The translations under genes and the position numbers were made by a program. A stretch of DNA of 64,000 nucleotides from Patescibacteria group bacterium (lineage in GTDB: Bacteria; Patescibacteriota; Microgenomatia; Levybacterales; UBA12049). This document shows, piece after piece, positions 5,182 through 53,868 of this stretch. Below the pieces are notes generated by a model. That model was given only the letters and a program-made list of their open reading frames with translations, made no database searches and had not been told where the DNA came from. The stretch is from assembly GCA_023484045.1 (NCBI GenBank), contig JAMDAA010000015.1:8659-72658 (forward strand), read 5' to 3'. Within the stretch, counting starts at the first letter, position 1. Every line of letters starts with the position of its first letter.

Positions 5182-6984
5182 TTATTGGGGCAAACAATTA
5201 CAGCTTTTTTCTGATGTACAATCGGGGTTACGACACACGCTAGACCCTAAACCTTCTCCGGATACACAAGTTAAATTTCCATCACATTCATATCCGTTGC
5301 TGCCGCAAGTCTGGTTGCAGTAAGCAATTTTTGGTGTCGGAGTCGGAGCAGCTGTCGGTAAGGGCGTGGCAGTCGGCGTTGGTTGGGGAGTTGAAGTAGG
5401 CGCGGGACGACAATTCTGCTGACATTGGGTGAGCCCCGTGTTATTAAAAGGATAAGGAGGATTATTTTGTGTCGTAAGTTCACACGTATAAGATGATGTG
5501 TTGCATACATATCCTGTGTACGCAGGTCCGCCTCCACAGGAAAAAGGTGTTGACTGAGAAAAATTTGAAAAATTAGAATCATCACTGCAATTCATGCAGA
5601 GTGAATACGCGTATTGCGCGTAATACGATCTGTTGCCATCGATTTGCACCGTTATTTGGGGGTTGTTCGCCTGAATTTTACTATTATACATATCTGCAGT
5701 CGCCGCGCTTCTTCCGACCTGAATCCAATAATTACCCGCCGTTGATTGTCTGGGAAACGAAATAACCGCGTTATATTGGTTGTTTCCAAGACTATTACAT
5801 GCGTTTACAATAACATTTCCGCTCGGAGTGGGAATAAATACGCCGGTATTAAGAGTAAAATTAATATTTTGGGCGGGGACTGTAATAATTTGGGATTGTG
5901 TCGATGCAGTATTTTGTTGATTAACTTGCAAAACTCCTGTTATTTCGTACTGTTTTCCGACTGTTAAATTATTCCAGCTCCATGGTTGGCCATTGTGTGA
6001 AGGGTTATTAATACGGGTAATAACATTATAATTTTGGTTTCCGGGCAACCTCCATAACATAAGCAAGCTCGTATTTTCCTGTTCCGGTCCGTTAATAAAT
6101 ACTGTTCCAGTAATGTTTCCTGTTGTTTGTTGGGGAACAGGAGTAGGATTATTAGGAGAGGGAGATACAGGAGGATTAGCGGGCGGAACGGCTGTAGAAT
6201 TGAGGATAAAATCGATTTTACTATCTCCTCCGGCCGCAGTCACAGTCTCACTTGTCGCGAGTGTGATTACTCCCTGCATCAAAACCGCTTTGATCATATA
6301 ATCTTTTAACGGTACTGTTTTGTCCCATTTCCATCCGTTTTTTTGGCCGGCATTTGTTGTCGTTACGACTGTTTGAAAATCCTGATCGGTCGGTAATCTT
6401 GCCTGAATAAAAAGCGTGTTTTGTGGAGGGATATATCCGTTTATCGTAACAGTGCCCTTAATATAAGTTGTTTGTTCTATAACGACAGATTCAGGTAAAT
6501 CGTGCCAGGTCACGTGTAGATTTAGCTCTTGATTCGCGGCAGGCGCGGTAACGATAAGCGGTTCTGATGTTGTAACCAATTTTCCGTCGACTTGTAAACT
6601 TGCGATCATCTCATACGGCTGTCCAGAAACAGCGTCATTCCACGCCCATGGAGATTTTTCCGCCAAACCAGACGCGTATACAATAATATAATCTCCCGTA
6701 CTTTTATATTTGCGGTATTTTATTTGTACCTGCCCTCTGTCTCCCGGGTCGGGTTTTAATGCAGTGTAGTTAATGACTCCCGCGATCGTCGCGGCGCGGG
6801 ATTTACCGGTCAGGAAAAAAAGCAAAATAAATAAAACGATCAGTGCTCCGATTCCTGCGGCGATATATATAAACAATTTTGATTTTAGAAATGCAATTTT
6901 TTCTTGAGAGGGTGGATTTTCGATGCCTTGAGGAGGTAAACTTGGAGTACTTTGATTGTTTTGATTTTGAATTACCTGGCCCAT
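5182..6984 (-). CDS. Large surface protein: N-in TM anchor, three tandem ~100-aa repeats, Pro/Thr linker, Cys-rich C-terminal module
   Basis: Three repeats share W-x-W-[ND] ... G-[QK]-x-Y-[EM]-I ... L-Q-V (SPWAWND..QPYEMIASLQV / NGWKWDK..KDYMIKAVLMQ / QPWSWNN..KQYEITGVLQV). The C-terminus has more than 15 Cys (CNQTCGSNGYECDGNLTCVSGEG..CRNPDCTSEKSCNC). Confidence 0.6.
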   Translation of the reverse strand: MGQVIQNQNNQSTPSLPPQGIENPPSQEKIAFLKSKLFIYIAAGIGALIVLFILLFFLTGKSRAATIAGVINYTALKPDPGDRGQVQIKYRKYKSTGDYIIVYASGLAEKSPWAWNDAVSGQPYEMIASLQVDGKLVTTSEPLIVTAPAANQELNLHVTWHDLPESVVIEQTTYIKGTVTINGYIPPQNTLFIQARLPTDQDFQTVVTTTNAGQKNGWKWDKTVPLKDYMIKAVLMQGVITLATSETVTAAGGDSKIDFILNSTAVPPANPPVSPSPNNPTPVPQQTTGNITGTVFINGPEQENTSLLMLWRLPGNQNYNVITRINNPSHNGQPWSWNNLTVGKQYEITGVLQVNQQNTASTQSQIITVPAQNINFTLNTGVFIPTPSGNVIVNACNSLGNNQYNAVISFPRQSTAGNYWIQVGRSAATADMYNSKIQANNPQITVQIDGNRSYYAQYAYSLCMNCSDDSNFSNFSQSTPFSCGGGPAYTGYVCNTSSYTCELTTQNNPPYPFNNTGLTQCQQNCRPAPTSTPQPTPTATPLPTAAPTPTPKIAYCNQTCGSNGYECDGNLTCVSGEGLGSSVCRNPDCTSEKSCNCLPQ

Positions 6985-7074
6985 ATATTTATACTAAACT
7001 AGTATAGGAAAAAGTCAAGAACATCTGGAAAATTAATAAGTAAAGCGTTTGATATAATATTTTTAATTATCACT

Positions 7075-19611: not shown

Positions 19612-19686
19612 GGGCTCCGCAGCTAGGATTCGAACCTAGAACCTTGAAATTAACAGTTTCCTGCTCTACCGTTGAGCTACTGCGGA
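19612..19686 (-). tRNA. tRNA-Asn (anticodon GUU)
   Basis: Hand-folded on the minus strand: acceptor TCCGCAG/CTGCGGA, D-arm GCTC-AACGGTA-GAGC, anticodon loop CU-GUU-AA, T-arm CTAGG-TTCGAAT-CCTAG, discriminator G. No encoded CCA. Confidence 0.7.
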
Positions 19687-21936: not shown

Positions 21937-23293
21937 AAAGATTAATTCGATTTGTAACTCCTTCTGCTTTTACGGGAAAACTCTCCAATAACTTACAAGA
22001 TTTTAAAACCAAGTCTTTGTTAAAGATTTCGTCGATAACCTTTTCCTCAATACTTATTTGAGGATAAGATACTCCGTGAGAAATAATAATCGTCTTTTTT
22101 TGAACCGCTTTTTTTGTCAAAAATTCTTTGTCTAAAATTTTTTTGGTAAAAAAATATTCATGGGCATCTGTAACGCCTTGAAGAGGGGGGATTTTAGTAA
22201 CGTACAAAAGCGCAGGCGTTATATCATTGACACCGTATAAATAGTCGGGATTTTCCTTTCGAATCAATTGCACGATTTTTTCAAAATTTTCGACTTTTTG
22301 TAGATTTCTGTAACCGGAGAAATAAACAGAAATATTTATAAGAATAAAAATAGACACAATAAAAAGAATAATCGGTCTTTTAAAATTAAGCTTTTTTGTT
22401 AAAAAATTATAAAATTCGTAAAAAGAAAGACAAAGAAAAGGGACTAAAAAATTAAGATATAAATAATACACGTCCTGAAAACCGAAGAAAAAAATAATGG
22501 AAGAAATTGAGACTAACGCAAAAAAAGTACTTTTTCTAATATCCAGAAGATTAAATATCAATATCATAAAAAGTAGAAAATCCTTACTTATAAAAAACCA
22601 CGCAACCTCGTTTTTCATAATTCCGGAAGGTCGGGAAAGTGAAAATCCAAAAATATCTCCAAAAAATTCCTTCGGTGCAAAGATTAAAAATGGGAGAACG
22701 ACGATAAAACCAGTTACTATAAAAGCGATGGAAAAGTTAAATATTTTTTTGTAATTTTTCTGTAAAATTAGGTAAACGAAAAAAGAGAAAGCGATTGGAA
22801 TATAATATGCTTTGGTAAGAAATGATAAGGCCATAAATACTCCGGATAAAAAATATTTTTTCTCCTGAAGAAACAAAAAACCTAGCACTGCAAATAGTGA
22901 GGCGGTAAAAACTCCTGTTTGATGATCAGATGTAGACAGGACAATAAAAGAAAAAATGTAAAGCGCAGAGCTTGTTAATGAAAGAAGAATATCCTTTGTT
23001 TTTTTATAAGTTATAAAATAAATAAGAGTAGTTATAATCATTACTTCGATTGCGGATGTAATATAAAAAATTTCGATATTTTTATTAGTCAATAAATAAT
23101 ACAAAGAGGATATATAAGAGAAAAAGGGAAAATTTGAAAAGAAAATATCTCTGTAAAGCAATTTTCCCTGGAATATTTGATAAACATCATTAAAATAAAT
23201 ATTTGTGTCGGAAAGACGAACGCCAATGTTTAAAACTTTTATAACGAAAAAAAATCCTAAAAAGCCGATAAGAGGAACGAGGCCTTTCTTCAT
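21923..23293 (-). CDS. GT-C fold glycosyltransferase-like membrane protein (PMT_2/ArnT-like)
   Basis: Multi-TM. First loop 'YFNDVYQIFQGKLLYRDIF' is paralogous to 'YGDEGIYQVVGMGINNNRLLYRDIW' of 54212..55669. Soluble C-terminal domain. Confidence 0.55.
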   Translation of the reverse strand: MKKGLVPLIGFLGFFFVIKVLNIGVRLSDTNIYFNDVYQIFQGKLLYRDIFFSNFPFFSYISSLYYLLTNKNIEIFYITSAIEVMIITTLIYFITYKKTKDILLSLTSSALYIFSFIVLSTSDHQTGVFTASLFAVLGFLFLQEKKYFLSGVFMALSFLTKAYYIPIAFSFFVYLILQKNYKKIFNFSIAFIVTGFIVVLPFLIFAPKEFFGDIFGFSLSRPSGIMKNEVAWFFISKDFLLFMILIFNLLDIRKSTFFALVSISSIIFFFGFQDVYYLYLNFLVPFLCLSFYEFYNFLTKKLNFKRPIILFIVSIFILINISVYFSGYRNLQKVENFEKIVQLIRKENPDYLYGVNDITPALLYVTKIPPLQGVTDAHEYFFTKKILDKEFLTKKAVQKKTIIISHGVSYPQISIEEKVIDEIFNKDLVLKSCKLLESFPVKAEGVTNRINLFKCY

Positions 23294-24342
23294 TTTTTGA
23301 TTTTTAGAATTAACCAGCGAAGTTTATCTGCGATTTTATAAAATTGATAAGTAAAAGGTTTAATCACTAGGTCATAGCTTCCGACGAATTCGACGAGTCT
23401 TGGTCCGTATCCCTGTTTAAAACGGTGAAACCCAAACCATGGATCATTTGCGTCCGGGTTTGGTCCTAAAGATCCCCACATATCAAATTTTTTAAGTCCC
23501 ATTTTTTTACCAAATTTTATTACTTCCCACATCATTAAATTAGATGCCATAACTTCCCGGTTTTCACTCGACGACGCGCCGTATGGATAATATAAGGTAT
23601 CATGAAAAATAAAAACAATCCAGGCGGCGAGAATTTTTGAATTATATTTTGCCAAAAAAAGACGAGCAGTCAGTTTGTCTTCCGAAGGCTTGTCCTGAGT
23701 TTGTCGAAGAGTCTCCCACATTAACTTGTGATAATTTTCGTTATGGGCAAAAAATTTCTGCCTGCTTGTTGTTACTTTTGTGAGCCTTAGATATTCTTTA
23801 AACGCTTCTTCGGAATTATCTTCGATTATTTTGACATTATGTTTTTGAGCGACTCTAATGTTATAACGCGTTTTAGGATGCATATTTTTTAAAAGTTCAT
23901 CCTCTGATTTTGTTAAATCGAGCTGAAAAGTATATTTGGTAAATAAGGGATGAGCAGAAGGCCTAAGGCCTAAATTTACAATTTTTAATTTACTCGCCTC
24001 GCTTCGCGGGCGAAGCGGGCAATTTTTAATATTGTCGACGTTTGGCTCGAGTTGGATAAATATACAATTTTCCTCTTTCCCGATTCTTTTAAGTTCATCG
24101 AGAATTTCTTTATCCGGTAATTCTCCCTTTGGAAAATAGCCGATTGTCAGGTTTGTTTTTGGAGTCTTATGAACAGTCAGCTGGAAGCCCGATTTTAATT
24201 TATTTTTTTCATAAAATCCTTTTCTTATTACTTTAAGACCTGTTTTTTCCCGAAATTTTCCCCATTCAAAAGACTGAAGGGGATGGGTCACGATTTTATT
24301 AAATTCTTTTTTTTCTTTTTCGGTTATATTTATTATTTTCAT
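23290..24342 (-). CDS. FemAB-family peptidoglycan interpeptide-bridge peptidyltransferase-like protein
   Basis: 'THPLQSFEWGKFREKTG' matches the FemX/FemAB N-terminal 'FLQS.EWGE.K' motif. About 350 aa, typical for the family. Confidence 0.7.
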   Translation of the reverse strand: MKIINITEKEKKEFNKIVTHPLQSFEWGKFREKTGLKVIRKGFYEKNKLKSGFQLTVHKTPKTNLTIGYFPKGELPDKEILDELKRIGKEENCIFIQLEPNVDNIKNCPLRPRSEASKLKIVNLGLRPSAHPLFTKYTFQLDLTKSEDELLKNMHPKTRYNIRVAQKHNVKIIEDNSEEAFKEYLRLTKVTTSRQKFFAHNENYHKLMWETLRQTQDKPSEDKLTARLFLAKYNSKILAAWIVFIFHDTLYYPYGASSSENREVMASNLMMWEVIKFGKKMGLKKFDMWGSLGPNPDANDPWFGFHRFKQGYGPRLVEFVGSYDLVIKPFTYQFYKIADKLRWLILKIKK

Positions 24343-26213
24343 AAAAATTCCGGCGCGTCATCATTCCCCAAAATATGTAAATTTTGGGAAATTACATTTT
24401 TCGGTAACTCGAAAATAAAACGTGATACGGTATTTGAAGTTTTTTGTCCGAAAAACATTCTTTTACGGGCATACGTTAAAAATAACCTTTCTTTCGCGCG
24501 TGTCATTCCGACATAACATAATCTTCTTTCTTCTTCGAGTTCGTGTCGGTCGAACAAAGACCTACTGTGTGGGAAAAGTCCTTCTTCCATGCCAACCATA
24601 AAAACGATCGGGAATTCGAGTCCCTTAGCGGCGTGCAGGGTCATAAGCGTTATCGCGTTTTTTTGCTTAGAGCTAAATATTGTCGGATGATCGGGCATAT
24701 ATTCCTGTTCGATTAACGCGACGTTTTCTAAAAATTGGGTAAGATCTGAAAACTCGATCGCGACGGACCGCAGTTCTTTAATATTCTCAAGTCTTTGTCT
24801 GTCGTCTTCGTCGCTCTCGTCGTATAAAGAAAGATAGTCAGTATTTTTAATGACGGAATCCAGAATATCGATCGTTGACTTATCTTTCTGTTCAAAAGAA
24901 GACTGAAATTCGATAAATTTTTTAAACCTTCCTTTTCCGAGTTTTTCGAGTCGTTTGTGAGATATCGTGTCTTTCGGGTTTTCGATATTTTTAAGATACG
25001 CGAGAATATCTTTTATTTCTTTTCTTTCATAAAATCGTGTCCCGCCAATTAACGTATAAGGAATGCTGTGGTGCAGCAGTACTTCTTCTAAGATTCTCGA
25101 CTGCGCGTTTGTCCTATAAAGGACTGCGACGTCGGAATAATTATAATGTGAGTCTTTGCTGTCAAAATATTTGAGATTTAATACCTGATTTATTATAAAT
25201 TCGACTTCATCGTGTTCATTTTTTGCTTCATTAACAATTACTTCATCGCCGATTGGATTTTTTGTCCAAAGCGACAAAACCGGATGAGTTGTGTTATTTG
25301 AGATTACGGAAGATGCAGCATCTAATATTTTTTGTGTCGATCTGTAATTTTGCGAAAGTGAAAATGTTTCTGTATTTTTAAAATCTTCTTTGAATTTTGA
25401 TAAATTTCTAAAATCTGCGCCGCGCCAGCTGTAAATACTCTGGGAAAAATCGCCGACGACGCACACGTTTTTGTACTCGGAAGAAAGCATTTTTGTTAAA
25501 ACGTATTGTGCGTGATTTGTGTCCTGGTATTCATCGACTAAGACGTATTTAAAACGTTCTTGATATTTTTTTAAAACGTCCTGATTTTTCTTAAATAGTT
25601 TTATTGTTTTTAAAATTAAATCGTCAAAATCGAGGGCGTTATTTTCGTCGAGGGTTTGTTGATATAAATTATAAACTTTTGCCGCCACTTCTTGAAAAAG
25701 TCCCCGGGCAATTTCCTGATATCGCTTTTCGTCGATTAATTCATTTTTTGCCCCAGAAATCGTCGTCAGAATAGAATTGGGTTTATAATCTTTCACTGAA
25801 ATATCGAGAGCTTTGAAAGCTTGTTTCACGGCATCGATCTGGTCTTGCTCATCGTATATAACGTATTTTGGTGAGATATTAATATATTTCCCATCGATTC
25901 TTAATATCTTGGCGCAGAGGGAGTGGAATGTTGAAACCCACGGTTTTATTTTTTTACCCGAAAGATATTTTTGAATTCTCTCGTTCATCTCTTTTGCCGC
26001 TTTATTCGTAAATGTGATCATGATTATATTTACTGGATTTACTTTTTTTTCTAAAATCAGATGCATAACTTTATGAACAAGGACTTTCGTTTTTCCGCTT
26101 CCTGCGCCGGCCAGAATTATCATGGGTCCATCGGTATTTATTACGGCCTTTTGCTGTTCGGGGTTTAAATCCTTGAGAAAATCGTTTGTCATACCGTATA
26201 ATGATATCACCAC
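24339..26213 (-). CDS. pcrA: ATP-dependent DNA helicase, UvrD/PcrA/Rep family
   Basis: Walker A 'AGAGSGKTKVL', motifs 'TFTNKAAKEM', 'VLVDEYQDTN', 'YRSTQKIL', 'TLHAAKGLEFP'. Confidence 0.9.
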   Translation of the reverse strand: MVISLYGMTNDFLKDLNPEQQKAVINTDGPMIILAGAGSGKTKVLVHKVMHLILEKKVNPVNIIMITFTNKAAKEMNERIQKYLSGKKIKPWVSTFHSLCAKILRIDGKYINISPKYVIYDEQDQIDAVKQAFKALDISVKDYKPNSILTTISGAKNELIDEKRYQEIARGLFQEVAAKVYNLYQQTLDENNALDFDDLILKTIKLFKKNQDVLKKYQERFKYVLVDEYQDTNHAQYVLTKMLSSEYKNVCVVGDFSQSIYSWRGADFRNLSKFKEDFKNTETFSLSQNYRSTQKILDAASSVISNNTTHPVLSLWTKNPIGDEVIVNEAKNEHDEVEFIINQVLNLKYFDSKDSHYNYSDVAVLYRTNAQSRILEEVLLHHSIPYTLIGGTRFYERKEIKDILAYLKNIENPKDTISHKRLEKLGKGRFKKFIEFQSSFEQKDKSTIDILDSVIKNTDYLSLYDESDEDDRQRLENIKELRSVAIEFSDLTQFLENVALIEQEYMPDHPTIFSSKQKNAITLMTLHAAKGLEFPIVFMVGMEEGLFPHSRSLFDRHELEEERRLCYVGMTRAKERLFLTYARKRMFFGQKTSNTVSRFIFELPKNVISQNLHILGNDDAPEFL

Positions 26214-26232
26214 GTCACACGTGGCTCAAGGC

Positions 26233-26904
26233 ATGAAAAAACTTTTCATAATTGCTAATTGGAAATCAAATAAAACAGAACATGAATCCATAAAATGGAT
26301 TCAAGAATTTCCAATTTCCTCCCGCTCAGCGGGACAATTTCCAAACAATAAAGAAATAATAATATGTCCTTCTTTTGTTTATCTCCCGCTTCTTAAATCA
26401 TATATCCTAGATCATAATTTACCGATAAAATTGGGGACACAGAATATTTCGAAATTTGACGAAGGTGCTTATACGGGCGAAATTAACGGAAAACAAATAA
26501 AAGACTTTGCCGATTACGTGATTATCGGTCATTCGGAAAGAAGACAAAATTTTTCCGAAAGTGAGGAGACGATTAATAAAAAAATCGAGCAGGCAAAAAA
26601 ATACAGACTAACGCCGATTCTCTGTGTCCAAAATCCAGATTTTAGAATTTCACAAAAGATAGAAATTATTGCTTACGAACCGGTTTTCGCAATCGGTACA
26701 AACTATCCGGACACGCCGGAAAATGCGAGTCTTGTCTCAGCTGAAATTAAGAAAAATAGTTTATCAAATCATGTTGTTTATGGAGGCAGCGTGACTTCGA
26801 AAAATGTAAAAGAATTTACCCAAAAATCTAATATCGACGGAGTTTTAGTCGGCAATGCAAGCTTAGATCCTCTCGAGTTTTTCGAAATCATAAAAAATGC
26901 GTAA
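26233..26904 (+). CDS. tpiA: Triosephosphate isomerase
   Basis: 'IIANWKSNK', catalytic 'IIGHSERR' and 'AYEPVFAIGT'. The ORF-track start at 26122 overlaps pcrA. The ATG at 26233 (MKKLFII...) is the real start. Confidence 0.85.
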   Translation: MKKLFIIANWKSNKTEHESIKWIQEFPISSRSAGQFPNNKEIIICPSFVYLPLLKSYILDHNLPIKLGTQNISKFDEGAYTGEINGKQIKDFADYVIIGHSERRQNFSESEETINKKIEQAKKYRLTPILCVQNPDFRISQKIEIIAYEPVFAIGTNYPDTPENASLVSAEIKKNSLSNHVVYGGSVTSKNVKEFTQKSNIDGVLVGNASLDPLEFFEIIKNA

Positions 26905-42235: not shown

Positions 42236-44014
42236 ATGGAACAAAATATCAGAAATTTTGCGATCGTGGCGCATATCGATCACGGTAAATCAACTCTAGC
42301 AGACAGGTTTTTGGAGATCACAAAAACTGTCTCTAAAGAAAAAATAATAAATCAATTTTTAGACCAAAATCCGATAAGCAGAGAACGCGGAATCACGATA
42401 AAGCTCGCGCCGGTTCGGATGAACTATGAATATAATGGCGTTAATTATATCCTAAATCTGATCGACACTCCCGGTCATGTTGATTTCTCTTACGAGGTGT
42501 CGCGAACCCTCGCGTGTTGTGAGGGCGTAATTCTATTGGTCGACGCAACGCAGGGGATTCAGGCTCAGACCGTTGCCCATTTCAATGCGGCAAAAAAACA
42601 AAATCTCGTTATAATCCCGGTTATAAATAAAATAGACATGCCAAACGCCCAAAGCAAAATCGTGGCAAAGGCGATGTGCAATATTTTTGGATTTAATGAA
42701 GAAGAGATTTTATATATTTCTGCAAAAACAGGAGAAAACACAGGCATTGTTTTAAAAAAAGTCGTTGAAAAAATTCCTGCACCAACGGGTAACAAAAATT
42801 TATCGCTTCGGGCGCTTGTTTTTGATGCGGTTTACGACGAACACAGGGGGGTTATCGCTTTTGTCCGGATCGTTGACGGGAATATAAAACATAGAGAAAA
42901 AATAAAACTTATTCAGGAAGAAACTTTAACCCAAGGGACGGAGGTTGGTTATTTCTCTCCTTTTCTCTCTCCGTCAGCCGAACTCAAAACAGGAGAGATA
43001 GGATATATAATAACAGGCGTAAAAGACATTCATGAATGTCGGGTCGGGGATACGATTACGAATTCAGAATTCCCCAGCCTCGCCAAGCGAAGCGGGGCGG
43101 GCAAAATTCAGAATTCAAAATTTGAAAAAGTAGAACCGTTGCCAGGTTACGAACCACCTAAACCCATGGTTTTCTTCGGTGTTTATCCTAAAAATCCCGA
43201 TGACTTTGTTCGTCTTAAAGAAGGATTGTCAAGACTTACTCTCAAAGATGCCTCACTCACTTTTTCCGAAGATTACTCATCTTTTTTAGGAAGCGGATTC
43301 AGAGTCGGTTTTTTAGGACTGCTGCATGCAGAGATTATTAAAGAAAGGCTGAAAAGGGAAGAAAAAGTCGAGCCGCTTTTAACTATCCCGCAAGTTTTGT
43401 ATAAGAAAAATCCCGATGGCTCGATGCTTGAGCCATATATTAGTTTATTGATTTATTCTCCGGTCGATTTTATCGGAAATATTATGTCTCTCTGCCAAAG
43501 AAGAAAAGGTAAGCTTATTAACACTTTATACCATGATACGTACGCGGTTTTGGAGTATGAACTACCGTATAGTATGTTTATAAGAGGGTTGTCATCGGAA
43601 TTAAAATCTGCATCTTCGGGATTTGCGAGTGTCGATTATGAGTTTATCGGTTTTAGAAGCGCAAATTTAATAAATTTAGAGATTATAATCAATGATCATC
43701 CGATCGATGTTTTATCGGAATATGTTTATAAAGATGAGGTTATTTATAAGGCCCGGGAAAAAACAGAAAAATTAAAAGAATTATTACCAAGACAACAGTT
43801 TAGACAAATTATCCAAGGTGTTATTGATGGAAAAATTATTGCGAGAGAAGAAATTCCGCCGTTCAGAAAAGATGTTGTCGCAAAACTTTCCGGAGGAGAC
43901 AGAACAAGAAAAGATAAACTCCTAAAAAAACAAAAGAAAGGAAAGAGAAGGTTGGAAAATTATTCAAAAGTTAACTTACCACAAGAAGCCCTGCTTTCTT
44001 TTTTGGAGAAATAG
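42236..44014 (+). CDS. lepA: Elongation factor 4 (LepA)
   Basis: 'FAIVAHIDHGKSTLADR', 'NLIDTPGHVDFSYEVSR', 'NKIDMP'. LepA-specific C-terminal domain. Confidence 0.95.
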   Translation: MEQNIRNFAIVAHIDHGKSTLADRFLEITKTVSKEKIINQFLDQNPISRERGITIKLAPVRMNYEYNGVNYILNLIDTPGHVDFSYEVSRTLACCEGVILLVDATQGIQAQTVAHFNAAKKQNLVIIPVINKIDMPNAQSKIVAKAMCNIFGFNEEEILYISAKTGENTGIVLKKVVEKIPAPTGNKNLSLRALVFDAVYDEHRGVIAFVRIVDGNIKHREKIKLIQEETLTQGTEVGYFSPFLSPSAELKTGEIGYIITGVKDIHECRVGDTITNSEFPSLAKRSGAGKIQNSKFEKVEPLPGYEPPKPMVFFGVYPKNPDDFVRLKEGLSRLTLKDASLTFSEDYSSFLGSGFRVGFLGLLHAEIIKERLKREEKVEPLLTIPQVLYKKNPDGSMLEPYISLLIYSPVDFIGNIMSLCQRRKGKLINTLYHDTYAVLEYELPYSMFIRGLSSELKSASSGFASVDYEFIGFRSANLINLEIIINDHPIDVLSEYVYKDEVIYKAREKTEKLKELLPRQQFRQIIQGVIDGKIIAREEIPPFRKDVVAKLSGGDRTRKDKLLKKQKKGKRRLENYSKVNLPQEALLSFLEK

Positions 44015-45559: not shown

Positions 45560-46606
45560 ATGATTAAAAGGTTTTTTATCAGGAGAAATATTTTGATTGC
45601 CTTGGCATTTCTAGCAATTCTTTTTATTGGTTTTCGGGTGTATCCATCTTTTTCGAGCGCAGCCCGGGAGGAAACGATCGAAGTAAAAAGAGATACTATT
45701 ATGCAGAGAGTAACTGCTTCCGGAGAAATCAAATCCGAAGACGAAGTCGAGCTAAAATTTCCAGTGAGTGGGAAATTAGTTTATCTCGCAGTTGAAAAAA
45801 ATGAGCCGGTTAAAAAAGGAAGTTATATCGCCTCTTTAGACAAAGAAAAACTAGAAGCAAGCTTACGACAAGCCTGGCAAGATTTTACCGCTGCCAAAGC
45901 CGAATCCGAAAAAGTTTACGACGAACTTAAAAGAAAAGTAGACGAATCTTTTGACGAAAAAATAAGAAGGACAGCCGTAGATGCAAAACAGAATAAAGCC
46001 TATGACTCGATTAAAAAAGCAGAACAAGATTTAAAAGACGCCGATTTATACTCGCCGATTACAGGAGTTGTCACCAAAGTTTATGTTCAAGCGGGAACAG
46101 GAATTACCAATACCACTTCCATTGTCACGATCGCAAATCCGAATAACATGGTTTTTTTAGCAAGGGTAGGCGAATCGGATATTGGCGATGTTTCGATTGG
46201 TCAAGAAGCTTCGGTTGCCCTCGACGCTTTTGAAGGGAAAACGTTTAAAGGGCATGTTTCCGAAATCGACTATGCAGCAACAGTTAACGGCGGCAAAAGC
46301 TATCTTGTCAAAATTGTTTTAGAAGACCTTACTAAAGTAAAACTCGATATGAGCGGAGACGCAGAAATAATAACGGTTTCTCGTCCCGATGCCTTAATTA
46401 TTCCGCGAAGCGCAGTCCAAGAAAAAAACGGCCCCACTTCGCCAGGGCTTCGCGGGGCAAGCAAAAAATACGTCGAGATTTTGGAAGGAAAAAACACCAG
46501 ACAAAAGGAAATAACAACCGGCATAAAAGGTACCGGCGGAGTTGTCGAGATTCTTTCGGGACTTGATGTTTTTGAGAAAGTAATAGTTCCAAAACCTGCA
46601 AAATAG
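45560..46606 (+). CDS. Efflux periplasmic adaptor (HlyD/MacA family)
   Basis: N-terminal TM, biotinyl/lipoyl-like hairpins ('SGEIKSEDEVELKFPVSGKL', 'DLYSPITGVVTKVYVQAG'), long coiled coil. Confidence 0.75.
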   Translation: MIKRFFIRRNILIALAFLAILFIGFRVYPSFSSAAREETIEVKRDTIMQRVTASGEIKSEDEVELKFPVSGKLVYLAVEKNEPVKKGSYIASLDKEKLEASLRQAWQDFTAAKAESEKVYDELKRKVDESFDEKIRRTAVDAKQNKAYDSIKKAEQDLKDADLYSPITGVVTKVYVQAGTGITNTTSIVTIANPNNMVFLARVGESDIGDVSIGQEASVALDAFEGKTFKGHVSEIDYAATVNGGKSYLVKIVLEDLTKVKLDMSGDAEIITVSRPDALIIPRSAVQEKNGPTSPGLRGASKKYVEILEGKNTRQKEITTGIKGTGGVVEILSGLDVFEKVIVPKPAK

Positions 46607-47838: not shown

Positions 47839-48549
47839 ATGGAAAAATCAAATCTCAAAACTCAAAGATCAAAAATAAACAATATAATTAAAGTAGAAAA
47901 TCTTAAAAAAATTTATCCCGGTAGAGTTCCAACACCAGCGTTAAAAGGTGTCTCTTTTGACGTGAAAGCGGGAGAATTTATCGCGATTATGGGGCGAAGT
48001 GGCTCTGGTAAATCAACCCTTCTTCACCAACTGGGGTTAATCGATACACCAACCGAAGGGCAAATTCTTATTAATGACACTGATGTTTTAAAACTTTCTG
48101 ATTCAGGAAAAACTTTATATCGTCTGCAAAACTTAGGCTATGTATTTCAGGAATACGCGTTAATCGCAGAACTAACAGCTTTAGAAAATGTGTATTTACC
48201 GGCATTTGCTTTGGGTGGAAACAATGATGGCTATAAAAAACGGGCCCAAGAAATGTTGGAAATTGTCGGCTTAGGCGAGCGGGTAGACCATTATCCCAAT
48301 GAACTCTCGGGCGGTGAACAACAAAGAGTCGCTATTGCCAGAGCGCTTATTAACAAACCCAAAATACTTTTTGCCGACGAGCCCTGTGCAAATCTTGACA
48401 GCGTTTCCTCAAAAGTCGTTTTAGAGTTATTCAAAAAACTGAATAAGGAGTTAGGACAAACTATTGTCATGGTCACACACGAACCGGAAGATGAGAAGTT
48501 TGTCGACAGAGTAATCTGGATGAGAGATGGGCTTTCGGAGTCCCCGTAA
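47839..48549 (+). CDS. ABC transporter ATP-binding protein (MacB/LolD type)
   Basis: Walker A 'GRSGSGKSTLL', signature 'LSGGEQQRVAIARAL', Walker B 'ILFADEP'. Confidence 0.9.
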   Translation: MEKSNLKTQRSKINNIIKVENLKKIYPGRVPTPALKGVSFDVKAGEFIAIMGRSGSGKSTLLHQLGLIDTPTEGQILINDTDVLKLSDSGKTLYRLQNLGYVFQEYALIAELTALENVYLPAFALGGNNDGYKKRAQEMLEIVGLGERVDHYPNELSGGEQQRVAIARALINKPKILFADEPCANLDSVSSKVVLELFKKLNKELGQTIVMVTHEPEDEKFVDRVIWMRDGLSESP

Positions 48550-48989: not shown

Positions 48990-49043
48990 CGTCTAGGAAT
49001 TAGCGTTCAGTGACTAGTTTTAATAACTAAACGCTAGACGCTA
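48987..49043 (+). other. groES-groEL intercistronic imperfect hairpin (TAGCGTCTAG..TAGCGTT / AACGCTAGACGCTA)
   Basis: The 10-bp perfect inverted repeat TAGCGTCTAG/CTAGACGCTA plus an inner 7-bp repeat starts at the groES stop codon. Confidence 0.4.
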
Positions 49044-49058
49044 AAAACTAAAAGCTAA

Positions 49059-50717
<1,659 letters not shown>

Positions 50718-50757
50718 AAAAGATCAAAAATCAAACCTCAAAAATCAAAACTGATAA

Positions 50758-52799: not shown

Positions 52800-53868
52800 C
52801 TTTCTCCAAACTAAGATGTAAAAAAAGCAATAGTCCTCCGACGAGTACGATTAACATTAATATTGTAAAAATTTTCCCCTGGCTCGTTAAGCTCAGAGAA
52901 ATCGTTCCTAATATAGCAGAAATAACCCAGTAAAACAACGCGATCTGTCTTTGCCCAAAGCCTAAACTTAAAAGAATGTGATGAAGATGTTTATTATCGT
53001 GCCAGAAAGGTGATTTGCCGGAAAAAATTCTTCGAAGAATTGTGAATACCCCGTCGATCATCGGGATTCCCATAACAAGAATTGCCGTCGCGAGTTTTGC
53101 GCCGGATAGCATCGACGTTGCGGCCAAAAGTAGGTATAAAGAAGTAGCGCCATACCCAGGGAAAATTTTTGCAGGATAAAAATTAAAAATTAAAAAACCT
53201 AAACTAGCGCCTGCGATCGCAAAAGACAGGTTTGCCGAGATAAAGGTATCTTGTTCTGATATCGGAAAACGCAAACTTAAGATTCCGATCACGATCGCCG
53301 AGATTGCGACGATTCCGGGCATTTGTCCATCCACTCCTTTACTCCAATTTAACATGTTCATAACCCACGTGATCCAAAAAAGAGCGATTATATCGGCGAG
53401 CGATATCGTTAGACTCGCTCCTAAAAAAGACAGTGTCGTGTTTATCGAATCGAAATGAAGAATTCCGCCCGCAGGATTTGTTATAAAAGGTATGGTTATG
53501 CCGCTTGCGACTACCATCAGAGAAACAGCGATGTTTACAAAAAATCTTAAATATGGAGACAGATCAAATTTATCGTCTAAAACACCGATGACAAGCGCAA
53601 TAAAAGATGCAGAAAACAAAATTAACGTAGTTTGATTTAATGGGAGGAATATTATTCCGGCGACAAGAACTCCGAAAAAAAGCGGGATGCCACCGCCTCT
53701 TGGAATCGGTTTTTTATGAATAACGCCCGGATGTTTGTGTGTTTTTGGGTCGTCGACGATATTTAATTTTTTAAGAAAATAAATACAAATTGGCGTTATG
53801 AATACGGTTACGAAAAAAGCGACTAATAACGGTAGCACAAGAGAAAGATTATTACCGACGATTTGCAT
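52780..53868 (-). CDS. Polyprenyl-phosphate N-acetylhexosamine-1-phosphate transferase (WecA/MraY family)
   Basis: 'NIVDDPKTHKHPGVIHKKPIPRGGG', 'GVLDDKFDLSP', 'HLHHIL' (carbohydrate-recognition and HHH motifs of PNPT enzymes). Confidence 0.8.
   Translation of the reverse strand: MQIVGNNLSLVLPLLVAFFVTVFITPICIYFLKKLNIVDDPKTHKHPGVIHKKPIPRGGGIPLFFGVLVAGIIFLPLNQTTLILFSASFIALVIGVLDDKFDLSPYLRFFVNIAVSLMVVASGITIPFITNPAGGILHFDSINTTLSFLGASLTISLADIIALFWITWVMNMLNWSKGVDGQMPGIVAISAIVIGILSLRFPISEQDTFISANLSFAIAGASLGFLIFNFYPAKIFPGYGATSLYLLLAATSMLSGAKLATAILVMGIPMIDGVFTILRRIFSGKSPFWHDNKHLHHILLSLGFGQRQIALFYWVISAILGTISLSLTSQGKIFTILMLIVLVGGLLLFLHLSLEKDEKEII

Follow-up and report, generated by a model that had tools for sequence, protein, structure and literature searches.

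How does a GC-rich palindrome, framed by two identical short repeats, come to lie inside the reading frame of a conserved protein without interrupting it? The question is raised by a locus in a 64,000-nucleotide stretch of DNA, referred to here as the window, from contig JAMDAA010000015.1 of a Patescibacteria genome (GCA_023484045.1). The window has a GC content of about 35%, and its best genomic relatives are all Levybacteria/Levyibacteriota. The gene concerned encodes a FemX/FemAB-family peptidoglycan bridge transferase. Our preferred answer, to which we assign a probability of about 0.6, is that the palindromic segment is a 27-nt member of a selfish, non-autonomous family of tiny GC-rich hairpins that survives only in permissive protein loops. 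The features on which the argument turns are these:

23290..24342, minus strand: the host gene, a FemX/FemAB-family peptidoglycan bridge transferase of 350 aa
23993..24019, plus strand: the insertion proper, a 27-nt GC-rich imperfect palindrome, CTCGCCTCGCTTCGCGGGCGAAGCGGG, delimited by repeat score and loop lengths
24000..24017, no strand assigned: a perfect palindrome that includes GCTTCGC/GCGAAGC, recognized from sequence and RNA fold
23973..23992, minus strand: downstream part (in gene sense) of a heptamer-periodic array read as native, TAAATT AAAAATTGTAAATT on the coding strand
24020..24030, minus strand: upstream part (in gene sense) of the same array, ..ATTAAAAATTG on the coding strand, which is the right-hand 11-nt repeat
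23958..23973, no strand assigned: a neighboring 7-nt tandem repeat, AAGGCCT x2.3 (Tandem Repeats Finder), encoding part of ..LGLRPS.. at the loop end

The product of the host open reading frame (ORF) belongs to the FemAB/FemX family, as it matches both the Pfam profile PF02388 (FemAB; E=7e-35) and a solved FemX, that of S. aureus (6SNR, E=9e-23), which is its nearest solved structure. The sequence-only reading of this DNA had described 11-nt direct repeats (CAATTTTTAAT, with copies at 23979-23989 and 24020-24030 and hence a 41-nt period), a 30-nt GC-rich core between them (TTACTCGCCTCGCTTCGCGGGCGAAGCGGG, 23990-24019), a perfect 8-2-8 palindrome in that core (CGCTTCGC-GG-GCGAAGCG, 24000-24017), and an open FemAB frame in which the core encodes CPLRPRSEAS on the minus strand. 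All of these are present in the DNA, and across the feature the ORF reads ...NIKNCPLRPRSEASKLKIVN.... Taken alone, the palindrome is only mildly improbable: from shuffles of the window, 0.02 occurrences of the 18-mer pattern would be expected, and a GC-rich perfect stem of 8 bp, with no more than 6 nt in the loop, arose at least once in 19 of 200 first-order Markov simulations. Stronger evidence that the feature is real, and not a product of chance, comes from its family, because its sequence is common to other copies. A scan of the window with Rfam found a single tRNA (19615-19686, minus strand) and no known RNA family over the element.

Is the segment an insertion? We compared the loop between the invariant FIQLEPN and HPLFT motifs in 69 Levybacteria loci. 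This loop, residues ~102-130 of the window protein, is hypervariable, ranging from 17 to 40 aa, with 20 aa as its commonest length (28 of the 69 loci); in the window it measures 29 aa (VDNIKNCPLRPRSEASKLKIVNLGLRPSA). When every possible 27-nt deletion in the window loop was tried and scored by lag-7/lag-14 repetition, the top-scoring one removed exactly positions 23993-24019, with a boundary ambiguity of 1 nt (23994-24020 is equivalent). The loop that remains is GTCGACAATATT-AAAAATTGTAAATT-AAAAATTGTAAATT-TAGG..., i.e., it contains a perfect 14-mer (2 x 7) tandem repeat, and it encodes VDNIKNCKLKIVNLGLRPSA, which at 60 nt/20 aa has the commonest loop length and aligns with the loop of locus L063 (VENSENLKLKIENLGLISAA). 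On the coding strand the insert reads CCCGCTTCGCCCGCGAAGCGAGGCGAG and adds about nine residues, CPLRPRSEA, in frame. Because it is nine codons long and has no stop codon, it would be tolerated as an extra translated loop; read-through predicts peptides such as NCPLRPRSEASK.

The closest relative, GCA_023485715.1 (loci L001 and L003), is syntenic, with 80% aa and ~79% nt identity. It lacks the FemAB 27-mer, the 16-mer of tpiA and the array and insert of lepA (see below), that is, the feature at all three comparable sites. Its own FemAB loop, of 22 aa, holds a different 16-nt palindrome, TCCGGCTCTGCCGGAG, near-identical to the tpiA 16-mer. The indel that had been proposed for the homologs of this gene is thus found, at exactly this loop, and they show no conserved, ungapped alignment through the segment. 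Judged from these comparisons, the FemAB feature is an insertion relative to homologs and a lineage-specific one.

What, then, are the direct repeats? As far as the DNA itself tells, they are two neighboring units of a pre-existing array, with no target-site duplication. The left-hand 11-nt repeat is included in the array part at 23973..23992, and the 41-nt period is the sum of 27 (insert) and 14 (native repeat), because the 27-nt deletion restores (AAAAATTGTAAATT)x2. The earlier observations of a 41-nt period, of copies in different phases and of an ORF that nevertheless stays open are all true, but the 41-nt unit is not the insert. The combination of phase difference and open frame follows from a net insertion of 27 nt in an array with a period of 14 nt. 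The implied alternative, a 30-nt core plus an 11-bp duplication, is at odds with the homologous loops, which show a net 27 nt instead.

In most Levybacteria that lack a GC-rich insert, the DNA of the FemAB loop consists of about four perfect heptamers, with units that depend on the species: AAATTTC in L046, L080 and L004, GAAATTC in L047, GGAAATT in L037, ATTTCGG in L041, ACTCTCA in L043, AGAAGCT in L053 and CAACCAT in L015. The phenomenon extends beyond this gene. In a census of exact tandem repeats with periods of 4 to 21, covering 1.36 Mb of Levybacteria DNA (loci L003-L082), period 7 occurred 64 times, period 14 26 times and period 21 17 times, i.e., 107 of 130 repeats, and any other period at most 4 times. 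Outside the FemAB loop there are 75 arrays, mostly within ORFs and of about four copies, and each species has a heptamer unit of its own in the orthologous loops of FemAB, tpiA, lepA and a DUF2298 gene. Literature searches returned no description of heptanucleotide repeats or arrays in Patescibacteria or the candidate phyla radiation (CPR). The arrays are a separate phenomenon, and possibly a more novel one than the GC-rich insert. Further heptamer arrays lie in the window at 47843-47876, 49027-49060, 50719-50750 and 53177-53196. A second indel hotspot of the FemAB gene (window ~23680-23700; QTQ-DKPSEDKL, as against PDGL in L001) bears heptamer arrays in other species, e.g., of AAAAATC, AAAAGTC and AATCATC (L079 10526, L015 10617, L037 10592, L061 10556).

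A scan of the window for local GC islands revealed three more inserts:

43073..43102, plus strand: 30-nt insert CCCAGCCTCGCCAAGCGAAGCGGGGCGGGC in lepA (ORF 42236..44014, plus strand), encoding PSLAKRSGAG
46433..46462, plus strand: 30-nt insert CCCACTTCGCCAGGGCTTCGCGGGGCAAGC in the gene of a resistance-nodulation-division (RND)/HlyD-type periplasmic adaptor (ORF 45560..46606, plus strand), encoding PTSPGLRGAS
26320..26335, plus strand: related 16-nt palindrome TCCCGCTCAGCGGGAC in tpiA (26236..26904, plus strand)

The FemAB core has the 10-mer GCGAAGCGGG in common with the lepA insert and GCTTCGCGGG in common with the adaptor insert; by our composition-based estimate, 64 kb would be expected to contain such a 10-mer about 0.01 times. 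The window therefore holds three family copies and one related 16-mer, and all four are inside ORFs. The lepA insert splits an array, (AATTCAGAATTCAA)x2+AATTTGA, and here too the repeat period is the insert plus 14 (44 = 30 + 14). Among 120 homologs, the lepA loop, taken between GDTIT and LPGY, has 9 aa in 27, including the closest relative (P0122, 85% identity, TLSDANVDQ), and 14 aa with heptamer-type sequence in 39 (e.g., TNSEFRIQNSEFTP); that of the window has 27 aa. In three other species, too, the lepA loop holds an insert of this family, in each case within the species' own heptamer array: CTCGCCTCGCGGCGAAGCGGGC in L212, a longer, apparently duplicated one in L213, and CCCTCCTTCGCCAAGGCTTCGGAGGGCGGGC in L214. 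In the adaptor, the exact ten residues are absent from all 40 closest homologs, where the flanks QEKNG|KKYVE align ungapped. The boundary of this insert is ambiguous by 2 nt, no flanking residue is duplicated, any duplication is at most 2 nt, and the site has no heptamer array.

The tpiA 16-mer had been assigned to the same family as the FemAB element, which is correct in part. It is a related palindrome, though of 16 nt only, which in our reading of its sequence looks like the family consensus with the central 12 nt deleted. It sits between AATTTCC heptamers (26306-26319 and 26336-26342). Orthologous tpiA loops bear the heptamers ATTTACG (L029), AATTTCC (L050), AATTCAG (L037) and AATATCA (L082 and L014), and that of L044 another palindrome. 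As 16 nt do not make up whole codons, the frame of tpiA is kept only together with the heptamer count, e.g., 16-7=9. The 16-mers TCCCGCTCAGCGGGAC of the window tpiA and TCCGGCTCTGCCGGAG of the closest relative (L003 10319-10337) occupy two different genes in two related genomes, and both have heptamers on either side; with lengths not divisible by 3, both leave the frame dependent on heptamer number. Further 16-mer copies occur at L026 4697 and L009 15031. Between the starts of a uvrD-like gene and tpiA, at 26211-26232, the window also contains a 22-nt segment, GCCTTGAGCCACGTGTGACGTG in minus-strand reading, with the palindrome CCACGT-CAC-ACGTGG, which is absent from L001.

Beyond the window, related cores were found in other Levybacteria loci (L065, L004, L006, L046 and L076), and two further FemAB loops hold inserts of this family. 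In L077 (VEIGNWKL-LAPRSLGEAG-KIGNLGLKPSF) the insert is in the opposite orientation to that of the window and lies inside a (GAAATTG)n array, so that this locus carries about 30 nt in a loop otherwise of the commonest length; in L071 the insert reads NPLRPVEDEAS. The FemAB loop collects hairpin inserts in general: unrelated palindromic ones occupy it in L028, L033, L044, L029, L016 and L011, for example those of the cattctgg..ccagaatg types, translated ..DSGQARMT.. or ..MLNQVQHD.., and CCCCTCTCCCTTGAGGGGAGAGGG in L044.

Other palindromes were encountered as well. A different perfect palindrome family, CCTGCCTGCCGGCAGGCAGG, occurs at L004 1814, L006 899, L015 9679, L016 13863 and L028 14003, and the L004 copy precedes a run of ATTTCGG-type heptamers. 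In the window itself, a GC-rich palindromic island at 6774-6803 (TCCCGCGATCGTCGCGGCGCGGGA; ORF 5182..6993, minus strand), near the N-terminus (..LTGKSRAATIAGV..), is a candidate for one more in-frame mini-insert. When palindromic islands were grouped by single-linkage k-mer clustering, unrelated families were chained together, and the result served only as a list. A scan of the 1.36 Mb of relatives for GC islands with flanking repeats of 9 nt or more turned up almost none outside the window. This near-absence at first suggested a window-specific element; it arises because the inserts split repeat arrays.

The family, similar in kind to repetitive extragenic palindromic (REP) sequences, has the consensus CTCGCCTCGC-TGRAGCTYCG-GCGAAGCGGG. 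We scanned metagenome contigs with the pattern GCCTCGC-N(0-12)-CGAAGCGGG. About 90% of the matches listed are in high-GC contigs and possibly due to chance, and only the 14 low-GC matches were interpreted. Among these, 10 of 14 contigs carry the consensus ctcGCCTCGCTGRAGCTYCGGCGAAGCGGGyc. The low-GC copies are intergenic as well as inside long ORFs (...GPLRHSDSEAS..., ...GPLRRSSSEAR...); some are clustered with other palindromes, and one is nested within another palindrome (intergenic and clustered copies in L133, L137, L161 and L162). A scan of viral contigs (IMG/VR) gave nine high-GC matches, some with the full consensus, which may reflect either spread across phyla or convergence. The full 30-nt consensus, CTCGCCTCGCTGAAGC(T/G)CCGGCGAAGCGGG, was seen inside long ORFs of the IMG/VR loci L203-L207 and L211 (GC 0.67-0.69), twice in L204.

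Folding and structure prediction bear on what the element does to its host. As the sequence-only reading had proposed, the RNA was folded: the 61-nt sense RNA at the FemAB insert gives -20 kcal/mol (z=-4.7), and the opposite strand z=-3.0. The RNA of the lepA insert gives -27.4 kcal/mol (z=-4.75) and that of tpiA z=-2.1. An AlphaFold2 model of the FemAB protein, built from 26 homologs, has a mean predicted local distance difference test score (pLDDT) of 88.7. The sole segment with a pLDDT below 50 is residues 107-112 (NCPLRP), i.e., the insert itself, between the strand at 93-98 and the helix at 115-123. According to this model, then, the insert lies in a disordered, permissive surface loop and is compatible with the fold.

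Taken together, these observations lead us to the following scenario. The element would have inserted, without target-site duplication, into the AT-rich heptamer array that natively forms the FemAB loop, and in doing so would have split the (AAAAATTGTAAATT)x2 array into the apparent 11-nt direct repeats. Copies that landed elsewhere or out of frame would have been removed by selection, while in-frame copies in tolerant loops remain. The family would thus be, or would have been, mobile as a non-autonomous selfish element. Its movement may have proceeded through a single-stranded hairpin intermediate and a trans-acting HUH transposase of the IS200/IS605 or RAYT (REP-associated tyrosine transposase) type, or, alternatively, by template switching at the repeat array, and AT-rich heptamer arrays would be preferred landing sites. 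By a lag-7 score that spans the junction, a period-7 context is about seven times as frequent around GC palindromic islands as around control positions (7 of 94 versus 19 of 1880). A stricter test for an adjoining array retained two of the 94 islands, because the insert halves the array. This association is compatible with array targeting, and equally with an accumulation of both features in permissive loops. Orientation relative to replication was not used, as the element is quasi-palindromic and the third copy could not be oriented with enough certainty.

Several points weigh against this scenario. The adaptor copy, the third of the family, folds no better than shuffled sequences (z=+0.56). 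No transposase or transposition intermediate was seen, in an analysis that made no genome-wide search and scanned only some of the window ORFs. Likewise, no polymorphism between empty and filled sites was found: at 90% identity, each of the three host proteins is alone in its protein cluster. The copy number is that of 64 kb of genome only. The lepA inserts of four species agree in orientation, frame and position, and could represent one old insertion that was often lost, as opposed to repeated targeting; recurrence at the same loops and conservation of the consensus across phyla could, moreover, reflect function. Finally, the inference of 27 nt without duplication assumes an ancestral loop of the commonest length, and a duplication of 7 or 14 bp, followed by compensating heptamer slippage, is formally admissible.

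A broader reading, possible but distinctly tentative, is that Levybacteria have a system of loop remodeling, in which fast-turnover heptamer arrays at permissive loops are the landing pads for GC-rich hairpins of 16-33 nt. AT-rich arrays would be seeded at loops of housekeeping genes (FemAB, tpiA, lepA and others), so that orthologous loops come to carry different perfect heptamers, and the cross-phylum hairpin family would insert into them without duplication. The frame would then be rescued by changes in heptamer copy number, as 7 = 1 mod 3 (e.g., 16-7=9 and 16+14=30). Arrays and hairpins would be linked by hairpin-induced slippage or by array-targeted transposition of single-stranded DNA.

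The selfish-element reading has to be weighed against other explanations. The first is that the hairpin is selected for a function in mRNA or DNA, such as a translation pause, an RNase or stability signal, or a site of protein binding or recombination. The strong folds predicted for the FemAB and lepA inserts (z=-4.7 and z=-4.75) would be in keeping with this, as would the conservation of the consensus, mismatched positions included, across contigs of 28-44% and even ~68% GC, and the recurrence of inserts at the FemAB, lepA and tpiA loops of several species. A functional signal, however, would hardly be missing from most orthologs and, at all comparable sites, from the closest relative. Nor would it be expected to vary by species in sequence, length and orientation at one loop, as it does between the window and L077. 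With one copy lacking a significant fold, and with the inserts at sites that tolerate any insertion, we consider a selected function unlikely.

Could the segment be an element similar to a miniature inverted-repeat transposable element (MITE), flanked by an 11-bp target-site duplication, or one of 14 bp if imperfect? Exact 11-nt repeats do flank the core, on either side 12 of the 14 flanking positions agree, and flanking repeats are also present in lepA (12 nt) and tpiA (9 nt); the array phase, continuous across the insert, would fit a duplication of 0, 7 or 14 bp. Excision of the core and one repeat (41 nt) should then restore the ancestral gene, yet it yields ...NCKFRP-stop in FemAB and a frameshift in lepA, and the pre-insertion FemAB loop would have had 46 nt, versus the commonest 60 nt. 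Repeat arrays of the same kind are found at this loop in species without a GC-rich insert, the adaptor copy has no duplication above 2 nt, and the repeat lengths vary (9, 11 and 12 nt), whereas every period is 14 nt longer than the insert. A duplicating element is, in view of this, quite improbable.

Still less credible is a local, de novo origin, in which the palindrome arose in place at an unstable array through slippage, hairpin-templated synthesis or repair. The FemAB loop is indeed a hotspot of indels and repeat turnover, and many unrelated palindromes are found there in other species (L044, L029, L016, L028 and L033). But inserts in unrelated genes of one genome have 10-mers in common, and the 30-nt consensus is common to many unrelated contigs, which largely refutes a local origin.

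An artefact of assembly or sequencing, for which nothing more specific can be adduced than that the contig stems from a metagenome-assembled genome (MAG), is hardly conceivable. The FemAB protein is identical to one from a Patescibacteria MAG at NCBI, identical gene DNA is present in an independent Logan assembly of SRR10252151, related inserts recur in many independent assemblies, and the reading frame is preserved; we rejected this candidate because independent assemblies agree. Programmed translational bypass, in which the repeats would be take-off and landing sites for an untranslated hairpin as in byp or T4 gene 60, is negligible: a GC-rich hairpin between identical flanks in an AT-rich gene does recall the mitochondrial byp elements, but read-through keeps the frame and yields the full-length conserved protein with no coding gap to skip, a hop of 41 or 44 nt between repeat copies would shift the frame, in FemAB into a stop codon, and the inserts of 27 and 30 nt contain no stop.

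How does the proposed family of selfish hairpins compare with known systems? Rickettsia palindromic elements (RPEs), from a reduced, AT-rich genome, are palindromic repeats that lie in frame in unrelated housekeeping genes and are read as an extra peptide at fold-compatible protein sites, with a size of ~100-150 bp (PMC10969869). Similarly, the 27-, 30- and 30-nt inserts are in frame and leave their ORFs open, the window copies affect four unrelated genes, including tpiA, and the FemAB copy is at a site, a disordered loop, that the model predicts to be fold-compatible. Unlike the RPEs, whose families 1-10 are confined to Rickettsia, the present family measures 16-33 nt, about one-fifth of their size, has its host in Levybacteria (CPR) and bears no sequence relation to them; it is found embedded in heptanucleotide arrays, and its consensus also occurs in unrelated contigs.

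REPs are dispersed, GC-rich imperfect palindromes of only 20-40 nt. They may be clustered or nested, cause no target duplication and form hairpins in single-stranded DNA or mRNA; the small dispersed repeats (SDR) of cyanobacteria are listed as a repeat type by the same source (PMC3116915). The 27-nt insert is likewise a GC-rich imperfect palindrome, with a perfect inner stem of 8 bp. Its insertion, too, would have entailed no target-site duplication, with a net gain of 27 nt and a continuous array phase in FemAB and no duplicated residues in the adaptor, and some metagenome members of the family are intergenic, like REPs. Against this, REPs are extragenic by definition, whereas each of the four window copies is intragenic, and neither the 5' GTAG-type tetranucleotide nor the doublets of REPINs (REP doublets forming hairpins) were seen. 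No RAYT was identified, and no genome-wide RAYT search was made.

The cyanobacterial SDR were reportedly described by Elhai et al. in 2008 as 'very small mobile repeated elements'. They are palindrome-containing units of ~20-30 nt, inserted in conserved genes and in each other, whose mobility is inferred from ortholog comparison; they are alike to the window family in their tiny size, and different in sequence and phylum. GC clusters and byp elements of yeast mitochondria are GC-rich palindromic mini-inserts in very AT-rich genomes, sometimes in coding regions. The organellar byp, however, interrupts the frame and is skipped by the ribosome, whereas the window inserts, unrelated in sequence, are read through in frame. 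With MITEs the family shares its shortness, its non-autonomous nature and its inverted-repeat structure, but not a target-site duplication nor the usual size of 50-500 bp: it is far smaller, and the whole element is one hairpin. The family is therefore closest to the RPEs functionally and to REP/REPIN and the cyanobacterial SDR in sequence style, and is a member of none of them. Literature searches found no description of palindromic in-frame inserts in CPR bacteria.

If our interpretation is correct, CPR/Patescibacteria genomes would carry ultra-small hairpin elements within essential proteins, in the manner of RPEs at a fifth of their size. Such inserts would inflate and diversify surface loops, would give rise to spurious "low-complexity" peptides of CPR proteins (PLRPRSEAS, PSLAKRSGAG), and could mislead alignment and annotation. 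The heptamer arrays are arguably more surprising, in that their period is nearly always 7 and they lie within coding regions, with different sequences at orthologous sites. Together, the two phenomena would offer a tractable case for the study of how minimal mobile DNA chooses its targets, and of how the reading frame is maintained in tiny genomes.

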